Source: a virus (lineage: Duplodnaviria > Caudoviricetes). From it: a stretch of 24,666 nt of DNA. Position 1 is the first letter of the stretch; the number at the start of each line of letters is the position of its first letter. Shown here piece by piece: positions 439 through 24,168 of the stretch. Below the pieces are notes generated by a model. That model worked only from the letters and a program-made list of their open reading frames with translations. It did no database searches and was not told where the DNA came from. Location: IMG/VR virus record IMGVR_UViG_3300020045_000915, positions 1 through 24,666 of that record; one strand, written 5' to 3'. A program made the position numbers and the translations under genes.

Positions 439-723
439 ATGAATAGTATAATAGATAATTTTTTTGAGATTGATAGCAATCCATTAAAGACTCCAGAAGA
501 ATTAGTAATAGGAAACTCCTACGCAACTAAATTTGGAGAAATAATTAAGGTAATGTCTACTAATGAAATAGATGATTCAGTAGAATATTCAGTTGTTCAG
601 AGAAGTGAAATGGTTGAGGGCGAGTTAATTACTAATTTAGATGCCAAACCATTAAACCTATTCTGGATATTAACTAGAAATAATGCTAGTAAAACTACTC
701 CGTATGAAAACGATACCAATTAA
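439..723 (+). CDS. hypothetical protein
   Basis: ATG at 439 directly after the upstream TAA (435-437) is a better start than 406. Confidence 0.6.
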   Translation: MNSIIDNFFEIDSNPLKTPEELVIGNSYATKFGEIIKVMSTNEIDDSVEYSVVQRSEMVEGELITNLDAKPLNLFWILTRNNASKTTPYENDTN

Positions 724-1538: not shown

Positions 1539-1977
1539 ATATTATGTACCAGAAATAAGTGAATTTCATGTAGGATTTGAATATGAAAAGAAATATGGAT
1601 TTTCAGATGGAACCGTAAAAACTAAAGAGCAATATGATTTAGCCACATGGAATAAAGAAATATTTCTAAATGGATTTGCCCCATATATTGAAAGGAGTCT
1701 TACTGGAAGAAATGCGGAAAATGGGCTATGCGGAATTCGTGTTAAATATCTTGATAAAGAAGATATAGAAAGTTTGGGATTTAAATATGTAAAACAAGGT
1801 TGGGCTGAAACATCAATGATATTTAGAGATAGTAGTTTCGATGGAGTTGAAATATATTTTAGAAATGATTATACTTTAAAAATATCACATGCAAATAATA
1901 TTGTAAGATTTGAAGGTTCTGTAAAAAATAAATCAGAGTTAATTAAACTACTTAAAATGCTGAATATCAATGCGTAA
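1528..1977 (+). CDS. hypothetical phage protein
   Basis: KYYVPEISEFHVGFEYE and RVKYLDKEDIESLGF look like a Bacteroidota-phage small-protein family; start uncertain (1495-1528). Confidence 0.6.
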   Translation: MDCKYYVPEISEFHVGFEYEKKYGFSDGTVKTKEQYDLATWNKEIFLNGFAPYIERSLTGRNAENGLCGIRVKYLDKEDIESLGFKYVKQGWAETSMIFRDSSFDGVEIYFRNDYTLKISHANNIVRFEGSVKNKSELIKLLKMLNINA

Positions 1978-2569
1978 TATTACTGAAGGTTACCAGAAGA
2001 ATAGTAATTTCTGGGATGAGAATCCACAATTAGCTGTTATCAATCCATTTAAATCACTTCTAAAGGATGATAAATCTAAAGGTAAGATTGATTCATCTAA
2101 TTTGATGTGGGCTATAGCATTGATTAATCATCCTAAGTCAGACTTATATTATGTTGAAAATAAGGAGTTTGTAATAGCTAAAGATATGTTAGGTTTAAAA
2201 GAGTCTAGCATTGATAAGTTTTGGGATAATAATAAATATTTAGTAGAAGCATTTACTGGAGCTTGTTTATCACAGGCAGAAAGGTCTTTAGTTGATTGGT
2301 ATGATTATATGCGTAAGAGAGATATATATCTTAAGAATACGGAGTATTACTTTGACCAATATAAAACTGATAATAATGGTGATAATATAGTTTCTAAGAC
2401 TGGACAATTTGTTACAGAAAAAGGTACGGCCGAGCAACTAGATAAAGCATGGGGTGCATCTAAATCTATGTGGGCTGATTATGAGAAGATTATAAAAACT
2501 GTTTCTGAAGAAGAAGTTGTAGTTAAGAATAAGAGAGAGAAGAGTTCAACAGCTAAAGGAGAGATTTAA
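1970..2569 (+). CDS. conserved helical protein, candidate terminase small subunit
   Basis: 199 aa, helical, charged C-terminal tail, last large gene before the terL locus; function inferred from position only. Confidence 0.4.
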   Translation: MRNITEGYQKNSNFWDENPQLAVINPFKSLLKDDKSKGKIDSSNLMWAIALINHPKSDLYYVENKEFVIAKDMLGLKESSIDKFWDNNKYLVEAFTGACLSQAERSLVDWYDYMRKRDIYLKNTEYYFDQYKTDNNGDNIVSKTGQFVTEKGTAEQLDKAWGASKSMWADYEKIIKTVSEEEVVVKNKREKSSTAKGEI

Positions 2570-2570
2570 T

Positions 2571-2780
2571 ATGTTTAAATATATTAGGAATTTAATTGAT
2601 ATAAGAAAAAATGACCCAGTAAAAGGTTGTAAATTATATAAATCAGAAGGATGATCTCATGTAGATGGATTTTTATGTGATTTTCCAAAATGTTCAATGC
2701 AATTAGAATACGAATTATTTATACTGGAACAAGAACTTGATATTCCATTTAAACTAAGACATTATAATAATGGTAAATAA
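2571..2780 (+). pseudogene. 69-codon Cys/His-rich ORF with an in-frame TGA at 2652-2654 (pseudogene, sequencing error or recoded stop)
   Basis: Manual translation MFKYIRNLIDIRKNDPVKGCKLYKSEG*SHVDGFLCDFPKCSMQLEYELFILEQELDIPFKLRHYNNGK; fills the gap exactly, starting 1 nt after the upstream stop and overlapping the next ATG. Confidence 0.7.
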
Positions 2781-3558
2781 CGATAACTTTCTACTAAAGG
2801 AAATACCTAGTGAAAATATATACTATGTATATGGATATTATCTAGAAGATGATACTCCTTTTTATATTGGTATGGGTCATGGGAATAGAATGGTTTGTCA
2901 TACGTGGCCATCTAAAAGAAATGAAAGAAAAACAATATTTTATAATAAGTTAAATAAATTAATAAACAATTGTATTCCATATTATTATAAAAAGATATAT
3001 GAAGATTTATCTATAGAAGATGCTATAAAATTTGAAATGGAATTAATTAGTGAATTCGGTAGGAAAGATTTAAAGACTGGTATACTATATAATCTTACTG
3101 ATGGTGGCGAGGGACACAAGAACTATAAAAGAAGTCTAGAGACTATAGAAAAGGTTAGACAAAAGAATACTGGAAAGGTAAGAACTGATGAATTTAAATC
3201 TAGATTAAGTAGGTTGCATACTGGTAAAGTTGTATCCGATGAAACTAGATTAAAGTTATCTATTATTCAAAAGGGAACTAAAAAGCCGAAACCATTATCT
3301 TCCTTGCCAAATTATAAAAGAACCGCAGCGCTTAAGAAGAATAATCCTGAGTTTTCAAAAAAGATGTCTGATGCAATGAGATTATTATATGGTAAAAATG
3401 TTATACAGATAGACGCAAAAACAAATGAAGTAGTTAAATATTGGGACAATCATATTGATGCAGCCATAGAAGTTAATGGAAGGCCAGATAGAATTATTGA
3501 AGTATGTAATGGTGTTATGAATAAACATAAAAAATATTATTGGAAATATAATGGTTAA
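2770..3558 (+). CDS. free-standing GIY-YIG homing endonuclease with NUMOD3-like repeats and a C-terminal NUMOD1/IENR1-like domain
   Basis: YYVYGY...PFYIGMG...R catalytic motif, E..LI...G..LYNLTDGGEG, repeats RSLETIEKVR / RTDEFKSRLS / VSDETRLKLS, and KNVIQID...VVKYW...IDAA...IIEVCNG...YYWKY. Confidence 0.88.
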   Translation: MVNNDNFLLKEIPSENIYYVYGYYLEDDTPFYIGMGHGNRMVCHTWPSKRNERKTIFYNKLNKLINNCIPYYYKKIYEDLSIEDAIKFEMELISEFGRKDLKTGILYNLTDGGEGHKNYKRSLETIEKVRQKNTGKVRTDEFKSRLSRLHTGKVVSDETRLKLSIIQKGTKKPKPLSSLPNYKRTAALKKNNPEFSKKMSDAMRLLYGKNVIQIDAKTNEVVKYWDNHIDAAIEVNGRPDRIIEVCNGVMNKHKKYYWKYNG

Positions 3559-3589
3559 TAATGACAATTTTTTATTAAAGGAGATTCCA
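2770..3589 (+). repeat. recoded 39-bp direct repeat (2770-2808 and 3551-3589), both copies encoding MVNNDNFLLKEIP
   Basis: atggtaaataacgataactttctactaaaggaaatacct vs atggttaataatgacaattttttattaaaggagattcca: 9 differences, all synonymous. Confidence 0.95.
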
Positions 3590-5830
3590 AAGTTTCATCC
3601 ATTAATCCAGAGGCACGAAAGATTAACATTCTTTAAAGACGTTAAGAAACGCATATTCGAGGGTGAATGGGTTGGAGGTCGTTGGTGTCCACCAGAATTA
3701 TACTTTCATGTAAACCTATCAACTATACAATTCTTAGGTGGCGGTAGAAAGGTACAAGGTATTGGCCAGCCATGGTTTAGGGATATAGAATGGGAGAAAG
3801 CATTTATATATTCTGAAGCTTGTGGGTTTAGTGGATTTATAGATGACCAAGTTTATACTTGTTTAAGAGTTGTTCAAACTGAAACTAAGGATGAGATTTA
3901 CCGTGATTTCTGTTTAGATAATAAAGGTGTTAAGATTGAGAAGAATTATAGAGCTATATTTACTTCTACTGGAGAGTTAAAGAAGTATATGAATGTTAGA
4001 GAATACTTCTGGCGAACAGATATGTCTAGCAGTTTTGGTAAAGCAATATATCTTAATAATGCTAAAAATGTAATAGATTTCGAGGGACGTGGTGGTGGAA
4101 AATCTTACTGGTCAAGTAGTTGTATACAACATAACTTACTTACAGATGGAGGACGAGATTATGATGAATACTTGGATGGTAGAAAGAATGGTAAATTAGT
4201 ATCTATATCTCAAACTCTAGTAGCAGCTATTGAGGCCAAATATAGTGGTGATTTAATGAGTAAAGTAAAATTTTCATTAGAACATCTACCTGGAGAAATC
4301 AATATAAGGCTCAATGGTGAAGATAAAAGTTTTCCTAGTCCATTAATGCCAGACCTTGGTGGTTCGTGGGAATCTGGGGCTAAGAATCCAGTTCATGATA
4401 TGCTATCAGGAAGTTCTATAATACATAGAACATTTCAAGATAATCCACTTGCTGCGAATGGTACTCGTCCGACTAGAGCATTTTTAGAAGAAGTTGGTTT
4501 CTTATCGAATGTACAAGAAGTATTGGGTGCAGTAGAAGCTACTCAGCCTAATAAACAGTCTAATAAATACTTACCAATATATATGCTAGGAACTGGTGGT
4601 TATACTACCACTGGTACTGCTATATGGCTTAAGCAAATATTCAATGACCCAGAATCTTATGATTGTTTATCATTTGATGACCAATGGGAAAATAAAGGAA
4701 AAGTTGGATACTTCTTACCAGCCACTAGAACAATGAATGATTTTAAAGAAGGTCCTAATTTGATATCAAATGAAGTTAGAGCATTAAAATCAATTGAAGA
4801 TGGTCGTGAGAAGGCCAGGAAATCTAATAATAAGATTAAGATTCTTACCACTATAATCAATCAACCACTAACTCCATCAGAGGTATTTATGACTATTGAT
4901 GGTAATTTCTTTCCAGTAGAAGATTTAAGAGCTAGGCTACAAGTGGTTGAGTCTAATCCTACTATATTTAATCAATCATATAAGTATGAAATGATGATGA
5001 TTGACGGAAAGGTATTTCCCAAGCTATCTGATAAAAAAGTTATTAGGGATTTTCCTATTAAGAAAGGTATTGATATGGATACTCCTATAGAAGTATATGA
5101 GTTACCAAAAAAGAATGGTAATGGAGATATTCCATATGGTAGATACTTAGCAAGCTGGGACCCGATTGATGTTGATGGTAATGATGATACTTCTCAATCA
5201 TTACAATCAATCTTTATAATGGATTCATGGACTGATAGGATTGTTGCTGAATATACCGCTAGAACTTATCTAGCTGCTGAATATTATGAACAAGCTAGAC
5301 GATTATTTATGTACTTTAATGCTTTATGTAATTATGAGAGTAACCTAAAAGGCCCATATGCATACTTCTTAAATAAGAATAGCTTGCATTTATTCTGTGA
5401 TACACCAGATATATTATCTGATAAATCAATTGGTGGCAAGGCTGGTGTTGGTAATAAAAGTAAAGGTACTCGTGTTGGAGGTAATGCAAATGGTAGCCCA
5501 ATTATAAACTATGGTGTAAATGAGATACTTGCGTGGATAGAATCACCAGCTTATGATAAGCCAGAAGGAACTAGAGTTATGGATACTTTACAAGGTCCGC
5601 AACTTCTTCGTGAATTAATAAGTTATTCTCCGCAATTAAACTGTGATAGAATCTCATCACTTATATTATTAATGATAATACGAGCTGATAGGAAAAGAAT
5701 TACTGATGTTTCTAAGACTCAAAGTGTAAAATCTAAGGCAAGTGACCCATTATGGTCGAGACCGTTTGGTGGGAATCATAGAAACTTATATGGTGGATAT
5801 GCACAACAAGATATGAATAGATTACGCTAA
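3551..5830 (+). CDS. terL: terminase large subunit (crAss-like)
   Basis: Walker A EGRGGGKS, Walker B AFLEEVG, motif III YMLGTGG, RNase H-fold nuclease YLASWDPID...NYESN...NCDRIS; 759 aa, upstream of the portal gene. Confidence 0.93.
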   Translation: MVNNDNFLLKEIPKFHPLIQRHERLTFFKDVKKRIFEGEWVGGRWCPPELYFHVNLSTIQFLGGGRKVQGIGQPWFRDIEWEKAFIYSEACGFSGFIDDQVYTCLRVVQTETKDEIYRDFCLDNKGVKIEKNYRAIFTSTGELKKYMNVREYFWRTDMSSSFGKAIYLNNAKNVIDFEGRGGGKSYWSSSCIQHNLLTDGGRDYDEYLDGRKNGKLVSISQTLVAAIEAKYSGDLMSKVKFSLEHLPGEINIRLNGEDKSFPSPLMPDLGGSWESGAKNPVHDMLSGSSIIHRTFQDNPLAANGTRPTRAFLEEVGFLSNVQEVLGAVEATQPNKQSNKYLPIYMLGTGGYTTTGTAIWLKQIFNDPESYDCLSFDDQWENKGKVGYFLPATRTMNDFKEGPNLISNEVRALKSIEDGREKARKSNNKIKILTTIINQPLTPSEVFMTIDGNFFPVEDLRARLQVVESNPTIFNQSYKYEMMMIDGKVFPKLSDKKVIRDFPIKKGIDMDTPIEVYELPKKNGNGDIPYGRYLASWDPIDVDGNDDTSQSLQSIFIMDSWTDRIVAEYTARTYLAAEYYEQARRLFMYFNALCNYESNLKGPYAYFLNKNSLHLFCDTPDILSDKSIGGKAGVGNKSKGTRVGGNANGSPIINYGVNEILAWIESPAYDKPEGTRVMDTLQGPQLLRELISYSPQLNCDRISSLILLMIIRADRKRITDVSKTQSVKSKASDPLWSRPFGGNHRNLYGGYAQQDMNRLR

Positions 5831-5883
5831 GTCTATAAAACTTTTCAAATATTTTATTTATCAAATTAAATTTCGTAACCTTG
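5829..5883 (+). promoter_or_regulatory. putative portal-operon promoter: AAGTCTATAAAA box plus Bacteroidota-type -7 element (TAACCTTG)
   Basis: Box at 5829, -7-like element at 5876-5883; same geometry at 9830 and 15978. Confidence 0.6.
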
Positions 5884-5902
5884 TACATTTAATCAAAGAA
5901 CT

Positions 5903-8236
5903 ATGTTTAGTAAAGATACATTAATGACTCCTCCACAAAAGAAGTCAACCAAGGAAAAATATTTAGATGACAAGCAATGGTTTAAGGACTGCATGGATGC
6001 ATATGAATATCAAGCATTATACTATGAGCAAGAGATTCATAGAAAGATGATTGTTCACTTCAATATGGATAATGGAGAGATTGACCAGAATGAAATGGAA
6101 AAGGTGTTTAATCCAATGGGATTGAATGGTAATACTTCACCTTCATCTGTAAAGAACTTTCCTATAGTAGTTCCTAAGATAGATTTATTGGTAGGAGAAG
6201 AGGCTAAGAGGAGGTTCGATTGGACTGTAAGGTCAATGAATGTCAACTCTGAAAGTAAAGATACTTCAGTATTATTTGATATGTTCTTGAATATAGCAAT
6301 AGATGAGTTTAAGAAAGAAGTTACTGATGAAAAAGAGTTAGAGCAACGTATTAAAGAATACGCTAGATTTGCTAAGTATAAGTATAAGGATATCAATGAG
6401 ATAACAGCTACTAAGATTCTTACTTATCTAGTTAGGAATTATGTAGTTCCTTATCAATTTAATAAAGGATTTAGAAATGCATTAGTTGCTGCTAGAGAAA
6501 TATATCGTATTGATATTGAAGGAAATGAGCCTATTTTGAAAGTATGTGACCCACGAAACGTATTCCTTATAAAGAAAGGTGATTCAGAAAGAGTTGAGGA
6601 TTCAGAGGCTATTATAGAAATTACTTATGAATCTGTTGGTAAAATTATAGATGCCTTCTATGACGATATAACTACAGAAGATTTAGAGTCTTTAGAAAAA
6701 GGACAGTGGCGTACTGGTAAGGGTAATAGTCCAGGGCAACTAGGATACTCACATAAATTACCTCCAATATTCTCAAACCTAGACTTTGGTAATGGGCCAG
6801 GATTTACAGATATAAATGACTTCAATAATACCAACTTCAAACTAGGATTGCCTTATGATATGCAAGGTAATGTTAGAGTTGTCCGTGGTAGATGGATGGG
6901 TCGTAAAAAAATAGGTATAGTAACATATTTTGATGATAACGGTGATGAAGATGAAAAGACCGTATCAGAATATTATAAGATAGATAAAGATGCTGGTGAG
7001 ACAATTAGATGGATATGGGTTAATGAGGCGTATGAAGGGGTTAAAATTGCAGACCATATATACCTTAAACTACAACCTCGTAAAGTACAAATGCGTTATT
7101 ATGATAATAAATCGAAGTGTTTTTTAGGTTATGTTGGTTCTGATTATGGTAAGTCCTTGATGGGTCGTATGGAGTCTTATCAATATCTTTACAACGTATA
7201 TATGAATAAGTTGGAAACTTTATTTAATAAATATAAAGGTCCAATTTATGAACTTGATATTTCTAAAGTACCAGATGAATGGGAAATGGATACCTGGTTG
7301 TATTATGCTGAAACTATGGGTTGGGCGGTAATTGACCCAATGAATGAAGGCAAGAAAGGTGCTGCTATGGGTAAACTTGCTGGTAGCTATAATACTACTG
7401 GAAAGGTATTAGACCCAAGAGTAGGAGATTATATTCAGCAAACTATTCAGATGCTACAACACATTGAGCATCAAGTAGGTTCTATTGCTGGGGTATCTGA
7501 ACAGAGACAGGGCCAGATTGAGAATAGAGAGACTGTTGGTGGTGTTGAAAGGGCTGTTACTCAGAGTTCACACATTACAGAAAAATGGTTCTTCCTACAT
7601 GATGAAACTAAGAAAAGAGCATTAGCCGCATTATTAGATACTGCTAAGCAATTATGGTCTAAGAATAAGAGCAAGAAATTATCTTATGTAATGGATGATA
7701 TGTCTAGGGATTTTATTGAATTTAATGCCGAAGACTTTGCATCTACTGAACAAGATATATTTATTAGTAATAGTAATCATGATGCTAAAATTAGTGATTT
7801 GATTGAATCGTTAGGACAATCATTTGTTCAGAATGGAATGGGAAGTATTCTTATTGAATTAATGCAAACTAATAGTATTGCTGAAAAGAATCTTATCATG
7901 AAGGAACAAGAGGAGAAGATGCAGCAACAGGCTCAACAGGCACAAGAGCAACAGTCTCAGATAGCTCAAATGCAAGCAGAACAACAATCCAAGGAAAAGC
8001 AAGCCGAGTTAGACTTTAAGTATAAGGAACTTGAAATGAAAGTTGAGTTAGAGTATGCTAAACTAGAGGCTATGACTGGTAAAGAAGTTGAATCAGACCC
8101 AACTAAGGATAGGCAAGTTGCATTGGCCGAGAAGAAGGCTGGTGATGACTTAAATATAAAACAACAATCACATGCTGAGACTGTTAGGCATAATCAGGCA
8201 GCAGAACAAATTAGTAAATTATCTAAAACTAAATAA
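5903..8236 (+). CDS. portal protein (crAss-like)
   Basis: 777 aa after terL; NFPIVVPKIDLLVGEEAKR, SLMGRMESYQYLYN, IAGVSEQRQGQI..RETVGGVERAV.QS; Gln-rich coiled-coil C-terminus. Confidence 0.9.
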   Translation: MFSKDTLMTPPQKKSTKEKYLDDKQWFKDCMDAYEYQALYYEQEIHRKMIVHFNMDNGEIDQNEMEKVFNPMGLNGNTSPSSVKNFPIVVPKIDLLVGEEAKRRFDWTVRSMNVNSESKDTSVLFDMFLNIAIDEFKKEVTDEKELEQRIKEYARFAKYKYKDINEITATKILTYLVRNYVVPYQFNKGFRNALVAAREIYRIDIEGNEPILKVCDPRNVFLIKKGDSERVEDSEAIIEITYESVGKIIDAFYDDITTEDLESLEKGQWRTGKGNSPGQLGYSHKLPPIFSNLDFGNGPGFTDINDFNNTNFKLGLPYDMQGNVRVVRGRWMGRKKIGIVTYFDDNGDEDEKTVSEYYKIDKDAGETIRWIWVNEAYEGVKIADHIYLKLQPRKVQMRYYDNKSKCFLGYVGSDYGKSLMGRMESYQYLYNVYMNKLETLFNKYKGPIYELDISKVPDEWEMDTWLYYAETMGWAVIDPMNEGKKGAAMGKLAGSYNTTGKVLDPRVGDYIQQTIQMLQHIEHQVGSIAGVSEQRQGQIENRETVGGVERAVTQSSHITEKWFFLHDETKKRALAALLDTAKQLWSKNKSKKLSYVMDDMSRDFIEFNAEDFASTEQDIFISNSNHDAKISDLIESLGQSFVQNGMGSILIELMQTNSIAEKNLIMKEQEEKMQQQAQQAQEQQSQIAQMQAEQQSKEKQAELDFKYKELEMKVELEYAKLEAMTGKEVESDPTKDRQVALAEKKAGDDLNIKQQSHAETVRHNQAAEQISKLSKTK

Positions 8237-8238
8237 TA

Positions 8239-8781
8239 ATGGATGAAAAAGTAATTAGTAATGCCTTCTCGGTTAATAAGAAGAAGGCTTACTTATCAGA
8301 TAAAATGATTCAATTGATTAATAAACAGATTCAATTGGAATTTAATGCTGGGCAATTATACAAATCAATGTCAACATGGTGTGAATATATTGGCTGGGAA
8401 GGACTTGCTAAGTTCATGAAATCACATGTTGAAGATGAGCATATGCATATGAATAAATTATATGAATATGCATTAGATAGACAAGTTAATCCAATTACTC
8501 CAGCAGTAATATCTCAGCCAACTGCATTTAAGGACTTAAAAGATATTCTTGAGAAGTCATTAGCCCATGAGGAATTGATTGAAAATAGTTACAAAGAAGC
8601 AGTTAAGATTGCTTTTTCAGAGAATGACCATACTAGTTATCAATTCTTATTATGGTATCTCAATGAACAAGTAGAAGAGATTGCGTTGATGAGTAAATGG
8701 TTAGATAGATTAAATATTACTGGATGTGACCAAAAGGGAATGTTCTTTATTGACCAAGAAATACTTGAGTCATTAGATTGA
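8239..8781 (+). CDS. non-haem ferritin (FtnA-like)
   Basis: LINKQIQLEFNAGQLYKSMS.W, GLAKFM...EDEHMH, HEELI, FLLWYLNEQVEE ferroxidase-type motifs. Confidence 0.9.
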   Translation: MDEKVISNAFSVNKKKAYLSDKMIQLINKQIQLEFNAGQLYKSMSTWCEYIGWEGLAKFMKSHVEDEHMHMNKLYEYALDRQVNPITPAVISQPTAFKDLKDILEKSLAHEELIENSYKEAVKIAFSENDHTSYQFLLWYLNEQVEEIALMSKWLDRLNITGCDQKGMFFIDQEILESLD

Positions 8782-11068: not shown

Positions 11069-12559
11069 ATGAGTGTATCTAAATCAGCATTCCCCTCGCT
11101 AAGAGTCGAATCAAAAGATTGGTCTGGACTGACCACAGAAAATCACTTGGGTGCATTGTTCGGTGAACAACCTGAGAAGATTTCTAAATTTATCTCTCGC
11201 CTGGAGTATCTTGACTTAGGTGAAGATTTAATCTCGTACATGGAGCAATTCCCAGTTCATTATCTTGAAGATGATAAAGAATTTGAGTGGATGCTACAAG
11301 GTGCTGAGGAAAAAAATATTCCATTAGTAAAAGCTACTGACCTTGCAGGGACTCCAGTTGCAGCCACTGATGAATTCGGTAAAGGGATTTCACGATTCAT
11401 TGTATACTTCAATGAAAAAATGTTCTTCCAAACACATGTAATTGCTGGACCAAATCCTGACCTTTACAAATTGTTGGTTAAAACTGAAGGCGAACAAAAA
11501 GGTGCTTATTGGGCATATGAAGTAGAATTGGTAACTGGAGATGTGAATCTTTATGTACCTTACGAAGAACTAGTTGCTGGTACTCGTTGGCATGTTGAAT
11601 ACTCTTTGAGTGAGCAAACATTGTCTAAAACAGGTTCTGATATTAGCTTTACTTCTCCATTCCGTATGGCAAATCGTATGTCTATGATGAGAAAGAAACA
11701 TCTTGTTCCTGGAAATATGATTAATAAAAAAGCTAATGACCCAGTTGTATTTGGTCTTCATGGTAAAGATAACACAACCTTTACTACTTGGTTAAATAAA
11801 ATTGACTGGGAATTCCGTCGTCAATTCCGTCGTGAAAAAGCTCGTCTGTTGATGTTTGGACAATCTAACCGTATGGCTGATGGTTCTTATGCGAACATTG
11901 GTGAGTCTGGCTATGAAATCAAAGCTGGTATGGGATTGCGTGAGCAAATATCTCCATCAAATATCATGTACTATAATAAGTTTGATATTGAAGCATTTGT
12001 AGATTATTGTTTGAGTTTATCTGTAGGTAAATTGCCACAAGATTCTCGTAGATTTGTAATTGGCACTGGTGAGCATGGTTTGAAAATGATTTCTCGTGCT
12101 ATTGAAAAATATGCTACTGCATCTGCTCTTGAATACGAACGTATCCCTGGATTAACTGGTGGGGCTCAAGCTTCTTATCAACGTCCACAGTATGTGAAAT
12201 TGGCTGATATCAATGGTATTAAATTAGAATTCTTACATTTGTCTCATTATGATGACCCTGTTCGTAATTCTATCAAACATCCAGATGGTGGTCTTGCTGA
12301 ATCTCATCGTATGACTATTATGGATTTTGGTACACAAGATGGTACTCCTAATATCCAGTTAGTTCGTGCTAAAGGATTTGAAGAGCAATTTGCTTATATT
12401 CCTGGATTACGTGACCCTTATACTCCTGGCGGTATGGGAAAACCAAAAATGGCGGCTACATCTGTAGATGGTTATGAAATCCATAAAGCTGATTGGTTTG
12501 GTGTGATTGTTAAAAATCCTATGCGTATGGCCGATTGGATTCCTAATGTGTTAAATTAA
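11069..12559 (+). CDS. major capsid protein (crAss-like, HK97 fold)
   Basis: WSGLTTENHLG N-terminus, FTSPFRMANR, IKAGMGLREQI, YDDPVRN..KHPDGGLAES.R, GLRDP; codon usage of a highly expressed gene (CGT, GCT, TCT). Confidence 0.92.
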   Translation: MSVSKSAFPSLRVESKDWSGLTTENHLGALFGEQPEKISKFISRLEYLDLGEDLISYMEQFPVHYLEDDKEFEWMLQGAEEKNIPLVKATDLAGTPVAATDEFGKGISRFIVYFNEKMFFQTHVIAGPNPDLYKLLVKTEGEQKGAYWAYEVELVTGDVNLYVPYEELVAGTRWHVEYSLSEQTLSKTGSDISFTSPFRMANRMSMMRKKHLVPGNMINKKANDPVVFGLHGKDNTTFTTWLNKIDWEFRRQFRREKARLLMFGQSNRMADGSYANIGESGYEIKAGMGLREQISPSNIMYYNKFDIEAFVDYCLSLSVGKLPQDSRRFVIGTGEHGLKMISRAIEKYATASALEYERIPGLTGGAQASYQRPQYVKLADINGIKLEFLHLSHYDDPVRNSIKHPDGGLAESHRMTIMDFGTQDGTPNIQLVRAKGFEEQFAYIPGLRDPYTPGGMGKPKMAATSVDGYEIHKADWFGVIVKNPMRMADWIPNVLN

Positions 12560-23718: not shown

Positions 23719-24168
23719 ATGATATACAATTTAACCGTAAAAAATTTAACGTCAAACGTATCAGGAGCTCTAGTATCAATTACTAGGACTTCTGATAGTT
23801 TTGAAGAATTTAGTGGAACTACTAATGCTAGTGGATTAATAAGTGCCACATTGACTAATTCTACGGATTTTACTGTAACCATAACAGATAGAGGTACAGT
23901 AGCTAAATTTGATTTATTAACTGCTTTAACTACTATAACTACTTCATATTATCTAATTCGTAGCTTACTAACAAGTTTTGGTATTACTTTAGATTATGGA
24001 GTTATACCTCCTGATTCTAATAAAAAATACAATGCTAAACTTACAAGTTTCGGTATTACTTTAGATTATGGTACTATTGCAACTAAAAATTATTTTAAAA
24101 CTAAAATGAATACTTGGGGAATTACTATTGATGAAGGTATGAGCAGTTTTATATATGAAGTATTATAA
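23719..24168 (+). CDS. hypothetical protein: Ig/transthyretin-like N-terminus plus three C-terminal repeats
   Basis: VSGALVSI...GTTNASG; repeats LTSFGITLDYG x2 and MNTWGITIDEG. Confidence 0.6.
   Translation: MIYNLTVKNLTSNVSGALVSITRTSDSFEEFSGTTNASGLISATLTNSTDFTVTITDRGTVAKFDLLTALTTITTSYYLIRSLLTSFGITLDYGVIPPDSNKKYNAKLTSFGITLDYGTIATKNYFKTKMNTWGITIDEGMSSFIYEVL
23971..24137 (+). repeat. intragenic direct repeats, period 72/69 nt
   Basis: acaagtttYggtattactttagattatgg at 23971 and 24043 (28/29 identical); degenerate third copy at 24112. Confidence 0.85.

Follow-up and report, generated by a model that had tools for sequence, protein, structure and literature searches.

The terL locus and its duplicated start

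The window, that is, the whole stretch of 24,666 nucleotides that was analysed, is a fragment of a crAss-like phage from a single metagenomic contig and has a match to Crass_capsid (PF23898) at position 11069. Its TerL (3551-5830) belongs to phrog_6681 (E 1e-70), with Cellulophaga phage phi14:2 as the best annotated match (33.5%). The two nearest terL relatives, L001 and L002 (86% over 300 aa), have an uninterrupted gene, while in the window terL lies directly behind a GIY-YIG endonuclease ORF whose end, stop codon included, shares 8 nt with the terL start. The features of the locus are as follows.

1970..2569, + strand: conserved left-flank gene of 199 aa upstream of terL, 83% nucleotide identity to L001
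2571..2780, + strand: small variable ORF with an internal TGA, its TAA overlapping codons 3-4 of the first start
2770..3558, + strand: GIY-YIG endonuclease ORF (phrog_314), an in-frame fusion with copy 1, 262 aa
2770..2808, + strand: copy 1, the native first 13 codons of terL, which now encode the nuclease N-terminus; 38/39 nt identical to L002 and 36/39 to L001
2809..3589, + strand: 781 nt (net) that empty alleles lack, with a one-base ambiguity at the left edge (2808/2809)
2818..3114, + strand: GIY-YIG catalytic domain, about residues 17-115, with residues invariant in the alignment
3223..3549, + strand: DNA-binding tail, NUMOD3 motif at residues 152-173 and I-HmuI-like C-terminal module
3551..3589, + strand: copy 2, replacement terL codons 1-13, peptide unchanged, nine silent changes
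3590..3616, + strand: terL codons 14-22, where the sequence departs from that of X2 record 9, the nearest empty allele
3551..5830, + strand: intact terL, 759 aa, of the same length in L001 and L002

The original prediction had described a common start of the nuclease and TerL, and we reproduced it. Both proteins begin with the same 13 residues, MVNNDNFLLKEIP, and their coding copies differ at 9 of 39 nt (positions 6, 12, 15, 18, 22, 25, 33, 36, and 39), all of them silent. No other 13-residue peptide occurs twice across the six frames of the window, and random placement of nine substitutions gave an all-silent outcome in 0 of 200,000 trials. Even when their flanks are counted, the copies share exact runs of at most 8 nt. 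Each ATG is overlapped by the stop of the ORF before it, also as described (TAA at 2778-2780 and at 3556-3558, in the -1 frame). A -1 frame stop at the terL start is present in L003, L026, and L032 as well, and it is a by-product of the native start. Since this stop is native and the ORF upstream of the nuclease is broken by a TGA at 2652, translational coupling is uncertain.

That upstream ORF (2571-2780) has 69 codons, with the in-frame TGA lying within a Cys-rich stretch, and no homolog was found among the loci fetched. It is not part of the cassette, because its 3' part occurs in an empty allele (X7 record 17, 0 differences to the window over 2700-2809). The ORF could be a pseudogene or reflect an error or read-through; TGA terminates 2 of the 27 window genes. 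The L001 ortholog of the 199-aa left-flank gene stops 3 nt short of the terL ATG.

The nuclease is a homing endonuclease of phrog_314 (E 1.4e-17) in which Y21, Y32, G34, G36, R40, E89, and N108, including the Y32-x-G34 motif, are invariant among 20 aligned relatives. The LEM-3-like GIY-YIG family PF22945 matched 9 of 11 family members, the window protein not being one of these, and NCBIfam gave no match. The structure model had a mean pLDDT of 75.7, with residues 1-12 below 50; Foldseek returned no match to it at E 0.001, the weak matches being to I-HmuI, PD-T4-3, UvrC, and I-TevI domains (best E 0.003-0.004). The protein has the catalytic motif and the separate, modular DNA-binding tail of GIY-YIG homing endonucleases, and its optional presence at a fixed site with empty alleles is likewise that of a homing endonuclease.

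We then compared the two copies as coding sequences. The codon index was 0.81 for copy 2 vs 0.56 for copy 1, the codons of copy 2 being the genome-preferred ones, and copy 2 matched the distant relative L007 at 34 of 39 nt. The divergence of copy 2 is explicable by drift or by a foreign allele, with no need for selection for immunity, and what had been called recoding may be partly drift, or the allele of another lineage. A sigma-70 scan gave 19 sites, compared with 13.6 +/- 3.3 in shuffles, and nothing specific; folds of the start region were weak. CNNNG is the motif of I-TevI-type enzymes, and inspection of copy 1 by eye found it absent there.

Empty alleles and the extent of the insertion

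The original prediction assigned the native start to the nuclease and the replacement to terL, and the comparison of empty with occupied terL loci bore this out: the empty alleles nearest to the window match copy 1. The start of L002 agrees with copy 2 at 29/39 nt and that of L001 at 27/39, compared with 38/39 and 36/39 for copy 1. Silent differences to L002 affect 1 of 12 codons in copy 1 and 10 of 12 in copy 2 (Fisher p 0.0006), the background over the rest of terL being 214/620. When all 17 other terL starts were considered, 9 were nearer to copy 1, 3 were nearer to copy 2, and 5 tied. The gene itself is patchy, in that 12 of 609 overlapping windows elsewhere in it have at least 9 silent differences in 12 codons relative to L002 (maximum 10). 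The divergence of copy 2 is extreme within terL, yet it is not off the scale.

The insertion was delimited with empty alleles from sequencing runs. Records 8 and 9 of run X2 match the window from 2768/2769 to 2809 with 1 and 0 differences, respectively, and then rejoin it within terL. The two joints, 2809>3617 (26 intervening letters) and 2809>3668 (77 intervening letters), each correspond to a net 781 nt. Past 2809, X7 record 17 extends for 24 letters only, reading KFHPLIQK. Since the empty alleles join copy 1 to terL, copy 1 is native and the insertion lies after codon 13.

The foreign tract extends beyond the duplicated codons. By hand count, X2 record 9 differs from the window at 10 of 26 letters in codons 14-22 and at 2 of 32 from codon 23 onward; relative to L001 and L002, the divergence of terL persists to about codon 33. 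The codons of the tract past codon 13 include amino-acid changes. Because the divergence continues to codon 22, the cassette replaces about 22 codons and not 13, and we infer that codons 14-22 belong both to the cassette and to the predicted target site. In the empty allele of L001, codons 14-33 of terL (L001:3040-3099) have G or C at 16 of 20 third positions, compared with 16 of 77 in codons 34-110, and look as if rewritten at the predicted target; the corresponding codons of L002 have G or C at 12 of 20 third positions.

An arrangement of this kind could have been produced by the assembly, as a chimera of two phage strains, the window being a single metagenomic contig and none of the runs listed containing half or more of the stretch. 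The right junction was recovered from two other runs (X3 record 22, 3505-3655; X4 record 14, 3374-3623), with 2 differences each, both runs being from one study and the depth of all supporting run contigs being low (2-3.4). No DNA contig besides the window spans the left junction at 2808/2809, and bins 2810-2900 had no coverage among the seven runs compared. Support for that junction comes from proteins, as four proteins, assembled independently and drawn from two source collections, have the left fusion. We give hardly any credence to a chimera and conclude that the window is none, and that the nuclease-terL arrangement is not a one-off.

The same 781 nt could also be a self-splicing intron with its ORF in frame with exon 1. 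Intron ORFs are typically fused in frame to the upstream exon, a point in favor of this reading. A phage terL can be spliced, as in ICP1, according to the accessible text of PMC10448857. Against it, no Rfam intron was detected in 2000-6500 even at E up to 10 (five chance hits), the ORF and copy 2 together leave no part of the interval free, and terL is complete without splicing. Judging from the list of mismatches, no register within the duplication pairs an exon-final U with an intron-final G, and neither a ribozyme core nor the splice sites of a group I or II intron were found. Run X13, which is probably DNA, contained no 781-nt joint. An intron is thus highly improbable, and the splicing-free residence originally proposed agrees with the Rfam scan, which gave no sign of splicing.

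Recurrence at terL and at other genes

Four further proteins (P0002, P0007, P0008, and P0121) open with the same 13 residues and continue as homologous nucleases, three of them with a different DNA-binding tail. The protein P0002 is 81% identical to the window protein (98% over the catalytic domain, 67% over the tail), while P0007 and P0008 are 55% identical to it over the catalytic domain and 10-14% over the tail. The nuclease P0003 begins with MINNSNFI, as does the TerL P0132. The C-termini YGKQ and YD (P0007, P0008) and YDG (P0002) would be compatible, as peptide sequences, with an overlap of the same style with a TerL ATG. In X4 record 16, a nuclease end resembling that of P0007 (7 of 11 residues, by hand) precedes a start similar to copy 2 (5 differences), and the codons 14-22 behind this start are a further variant.

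The identity of the peptide in the nuclease had been taken to imply either a recent insertion or a selected function, such as targeting the nuclease to the packaging machinery. Recency does not follow, as the same peptide stands on nucleases with the low identities given above. A domesticated packaging accessory, which would keep the TerL peptide to bring the nuclease to the portal or the small terminase, would agree with the 13 residues being identical on five nuclease proteins and with HNH nucleases beside terL that can act in packaging (PMC10448857, in the part available). It is very unlikely, however, given that the close homologs P0004-P0006 and L042 lack the peptide, that residues 1-12 appear unstructured in the model, that such a nuclease is missing immediately upstream of terL in 54 of 57 related loci, and that the layout is found at non-terminase genes too. 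The peptide is better read as a left homology arm plus start site than as a packaging-targeting signal.

Of the 57 distinct terL loci in IMG/VR, 3 are immediately preceded by a related nuclease; L042 has its own start and L059 and L134 are cut off 5', so that no confirmed start capture was found in this set. A path in which a nuclease with its own start came to lie before terL first and captured the terL start later is plausible. The catalytic-domain tree leaves 8 of 16 inner branches open and allows both a single and a repeated origin of start capture at terL. The pair of the window protein and P0002 and the pair of P0007 and P0008 agree with each other almost completely up to residue 37 and diverge afterwards; because the identity ends there, grafting by recombination is possible and the age of the insertion is not directly readable.

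We also searched for a second full occupied locus. None was found in viral contigs with the nuclease as the query (2 loci; 6 loci) or with a degenerate start pattern (8 stretches). The 15 stretches from metagenome contigs comprised 12 terL starts with no second start and 3 chance matches, and genome contigs gave 0 of 164 candidates, with 1 weak unrelated match in a separate search. A profile search of cluster representatives (146 new ids) yielded no further clear TerL-like N-terminus, P0231 being weak.

The layout was then looked for at other target genes by counting distinct nuclease/next-gene pairs in the fetched loci, with 5'-truncated ORFs dropped. At least 5 of the 6 residues after Met were shared in 2 of 52 nuclease/next-gene pairs and in none of the 587 other pairs (p 0.0065); when 4 of 6 residues sufficed, the counts were 2 of 52 and 2 of 587 (p 0.035). 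The L205 and L196 pairs, each with 4 of 6, were set aside as non-nuclease background. This search, suggested along with the original prediction, returned L190 and L158, to which the cultured phage "tikkala" is added below.

At L190 (946-1762), the GIY-YIG nuclease and the next gene, which we take to be a small gene in front of a terminase-like ORF, start MNIKETK and MDIKETK, respectively. Related starts were nearer to the nuclease's copy in 76 of 80 cases (3 nearer to the gene's copy, 1 tie), and the upstream contexts were so in 80 of 80. At L158 (922-2776), the GIY-YIG nuclease and the next gene both start MSLLDKV. Here the coding copies tie in 63 of 71 relatives, i.e., they are not distinguishable, and the upstream context favors the nuclease's copy in 28, the gene's in 42, and neither in 1 of the 71; several loci match the upstream context of the nuclease at 29-30 of 30 nt. 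A GIY-YIG gene and the gene behind it at L152 (2401-3172) both start MSLL.

In "tikkala" (L370:1324-2728), the native start context of a tail-tubular gene belongs to a GIY nuclease, which carries the upstream context plus the first 8 nt of this gene as they occur in crAss001 (L373:1449-2159). The tail-tubular gene behind the nuclease differs from that of crAss001 at 21 of its first 52 nt and at 16 of the 659 that follow. Alignment of crAss001 and the PhiCrAssBcn phages with it begins only at nt 53, and the replaced stretch comprises the gene's first 50-80 nt. The "tikkala"/crAss001 pair is the same layout with a shorter capture.

In PhiCrAssBcn18 (L369:1393-2100) and crAss001 (L373:214-915), a nuclease lies one gene further upstream, before an HU/IHF-like gene; in PhiCrAssBcn18, the 3' end of the gene preceding the nuclease differs from that in "tikkala", possibly a C-terminal replacement. 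Flavobacterium phage FpV4 (L368:1254-3757) was set aside as a case of capture, since the next ORF resembles the second half of an interrupted helicase. The FpV4 nuclease N-terminus and this ORF have KQINPV in common, with silent differences, and the locus is possibly an unannotated intron.

Proposed mechanism and relation to known systems

The data show the anatomy of the locus, which copy is native, how far the 781-nt insertion and the foreign tract reach, and that the layout recurs on other nucleases and at other genes. We consider it quite probable that these features reflect a free-standing cassette that has captured the terL start, supplies divergent codons in place of the first 22 or so, and likely spreads by homing with no need of splicing. 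During mixed infections, an empty terL would be cut by the nuclease within its 5' end, near codons 10-22. The 13 native codons plus the upstream DNA would serve as left homology for the repair and terL from codon 23 as right homology, the nuclease and the replacement start being copied together. Immunity of the occupied allele would follow from the break in its native half-site and from the altered sequence of the rebuilt site. Expression of the nuclease would depend on the start context of terL, and terL itself would be translated by re-initiation at the ATG overlapping the nuclease stop. With exact runs of no more than 8 nt between the copies, their mismatches would also make it harder for recombination to remove the cassette. 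The agreement of copy 1 with the empty alleles likely persists because this is their own sequence, exchanged at each homing.

The nuclease could instead be a relic that no longer homes here or that cuts a distant gene, with a drifted or foreign copy 2 that has no role in immunity. T4 free-standing enzymes cut hundreds to thousands of base pairs away, as the available part of PMC2988022 has it, and the preferred codons of copy 2 and the patchiness of terL would fit as well. On the other hand, the ORF is full length with intact catalytic residues, the catalytic domain has been conserved in P0002 far more than the tail, the foreign tract has its middle at the insertion point and stops at codon 22-23, and the flanks are near-identical between empty and occupied alleles. 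We regard a relic as unlikely, and the active cassette remains our preferred reading.

The closest known system is the gene-hybrid element of fungal mitochondria, in mirror orientation. As far as the accessible text of PMC3630166 goes, mobile endonuclease ORFs form hybrid genes there (atp6 of Allomyces macrogynus; atp6, atp9, cox2, and nad3 of Glomus), and PMC4019555, of which a part was available, also deals with such elements. Both the fungal elements and the window cassette place an intron-free endonuclease in an essential gene, with a divergent replacement of the displaced part and a displaced native copy that matches empty relatives; in the fungal case, too, the reading frame of the ORF can continue that of the host gene, and the one in atp9 is GIY-YIG (PMC3630166, same portion). 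The fungal elements replace the C-terminus and carry the replacement piece at their 5' end, whereas in the window the N-terminus is replaced and the replacement piece lies at the 3' end. Only in the window is the displaced native piece the start of the nuclease, and the host is a phage and not an organelle. The "N-terminal duplications" of Tremella, as described in the consulted part of PMC7315562, are copies of the following exon at the 5' end of the insert and so have the fungal orientation.

In T4, GIY-YIG enzymes cut the empty allele and the repair copies their gene with co-conversion of the flanks (PMC2988022, available sections). The Seg enzymes resemble the window nuclease in the GIY-YIG domain with a modular DNA-binding tail, the lack of an intron, the vicinity of essential genes, the overlaps with neighbour genes, and the co-conversion; they differ, in the same sections, in being intergenic and cutting at a distance, while the window nuclease lies inside a coding sequence, is fused to it, duplicates its start, and has a putative target next to it. 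Of the marks of the Seg type, the window nuclease has no intron or intein around its gene (own stop at 3556-3558, separate terL ATG) and lacks the intergenic position, the insertion being after terL codon 13. The genes mobE in Aeh1 nrdA and mobA in T4 gene 60 likewise reside without splicing inside an essential phage gene, but their hosts are split into two chains, whereas TerL of the window is rebuilt whole by duplication (PMC2988022, in part). Engineered home-and-rescue drives follow the same logic, a nuclease homing into an essential gene and carrying the rescue; they are synthetic, use Cas9 in Drosophila, and offer an analogy only (PMC7968924, from the part at hand). In the available text of PMC10448857 and PMC12724721, which describe nucleases near terminases, a start duplication was not met. 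The literature searched, mostly the main text of openly available papers, held no phage report of N-terminal capture with replacement. Start capture with replacement is apparently undescribed in phages; its mirror image has been described in fungal mitochondria.

Some integrative elements, such as SXT/R391 at prfC and e14 at icd, likewise restore the gene they enter by supplying a replacement for its end, but they do so with a site-specific integrase and att sites, whereas the 781-nt cassette has no integrase.

The locus is a well-supported instance of an apparently undescribed, likely widespread pattern in which a selfish nuclease can occupy a packaging-motor gene with no intron, intein, or split protein. 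Its target site is predicted from sequence alone to within about 70 bp. Homing would exchange the first 20 or so codons of terL among lineages, and gene callers and TerL phylogenies would be faced with mosaic N-termini. The "tikkala"/crAss001 pair makes the general mechanism testable on sequences of cultured phages. A bolder reading, which we offer tentatively as possible though somewhat doubtful, is that the crassvirus terL start is a long-lived home-and-rescue platform. One 13-codon stub would have served a series of tail-swapping GIY-YIG nucleases, each bringing a rewritten terL start plus codons 14-22, the empty alleles would diversify those codons to escape, and start capture would join splicing and gene splitting as a third general way for homing nucleases to reside within essential genes of phages.

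Other observations concern terL relatives and the rest of the window. The TerL proteins of L008, L009, L010, L012, L013, and L014 are 940-1100 aa long, with an insert near residue 181, and database homologs of this length carry PF05203/PF05204, which suggests that the insert is an intein, a second selfish element in terL. In the window, a ferritin-like gene (PF00210, E 2e-34) lies at 8239-8781 (+), between the portal gene and an RNase H-like exonuclease gene. The peptide LTSFGITLDYG occurs twice, 72 nt apart, at 23968-24078 (+), and an 11-residue repeat, also 72 nt apart, is found in the minus-strand translation at about 596-700 (-).
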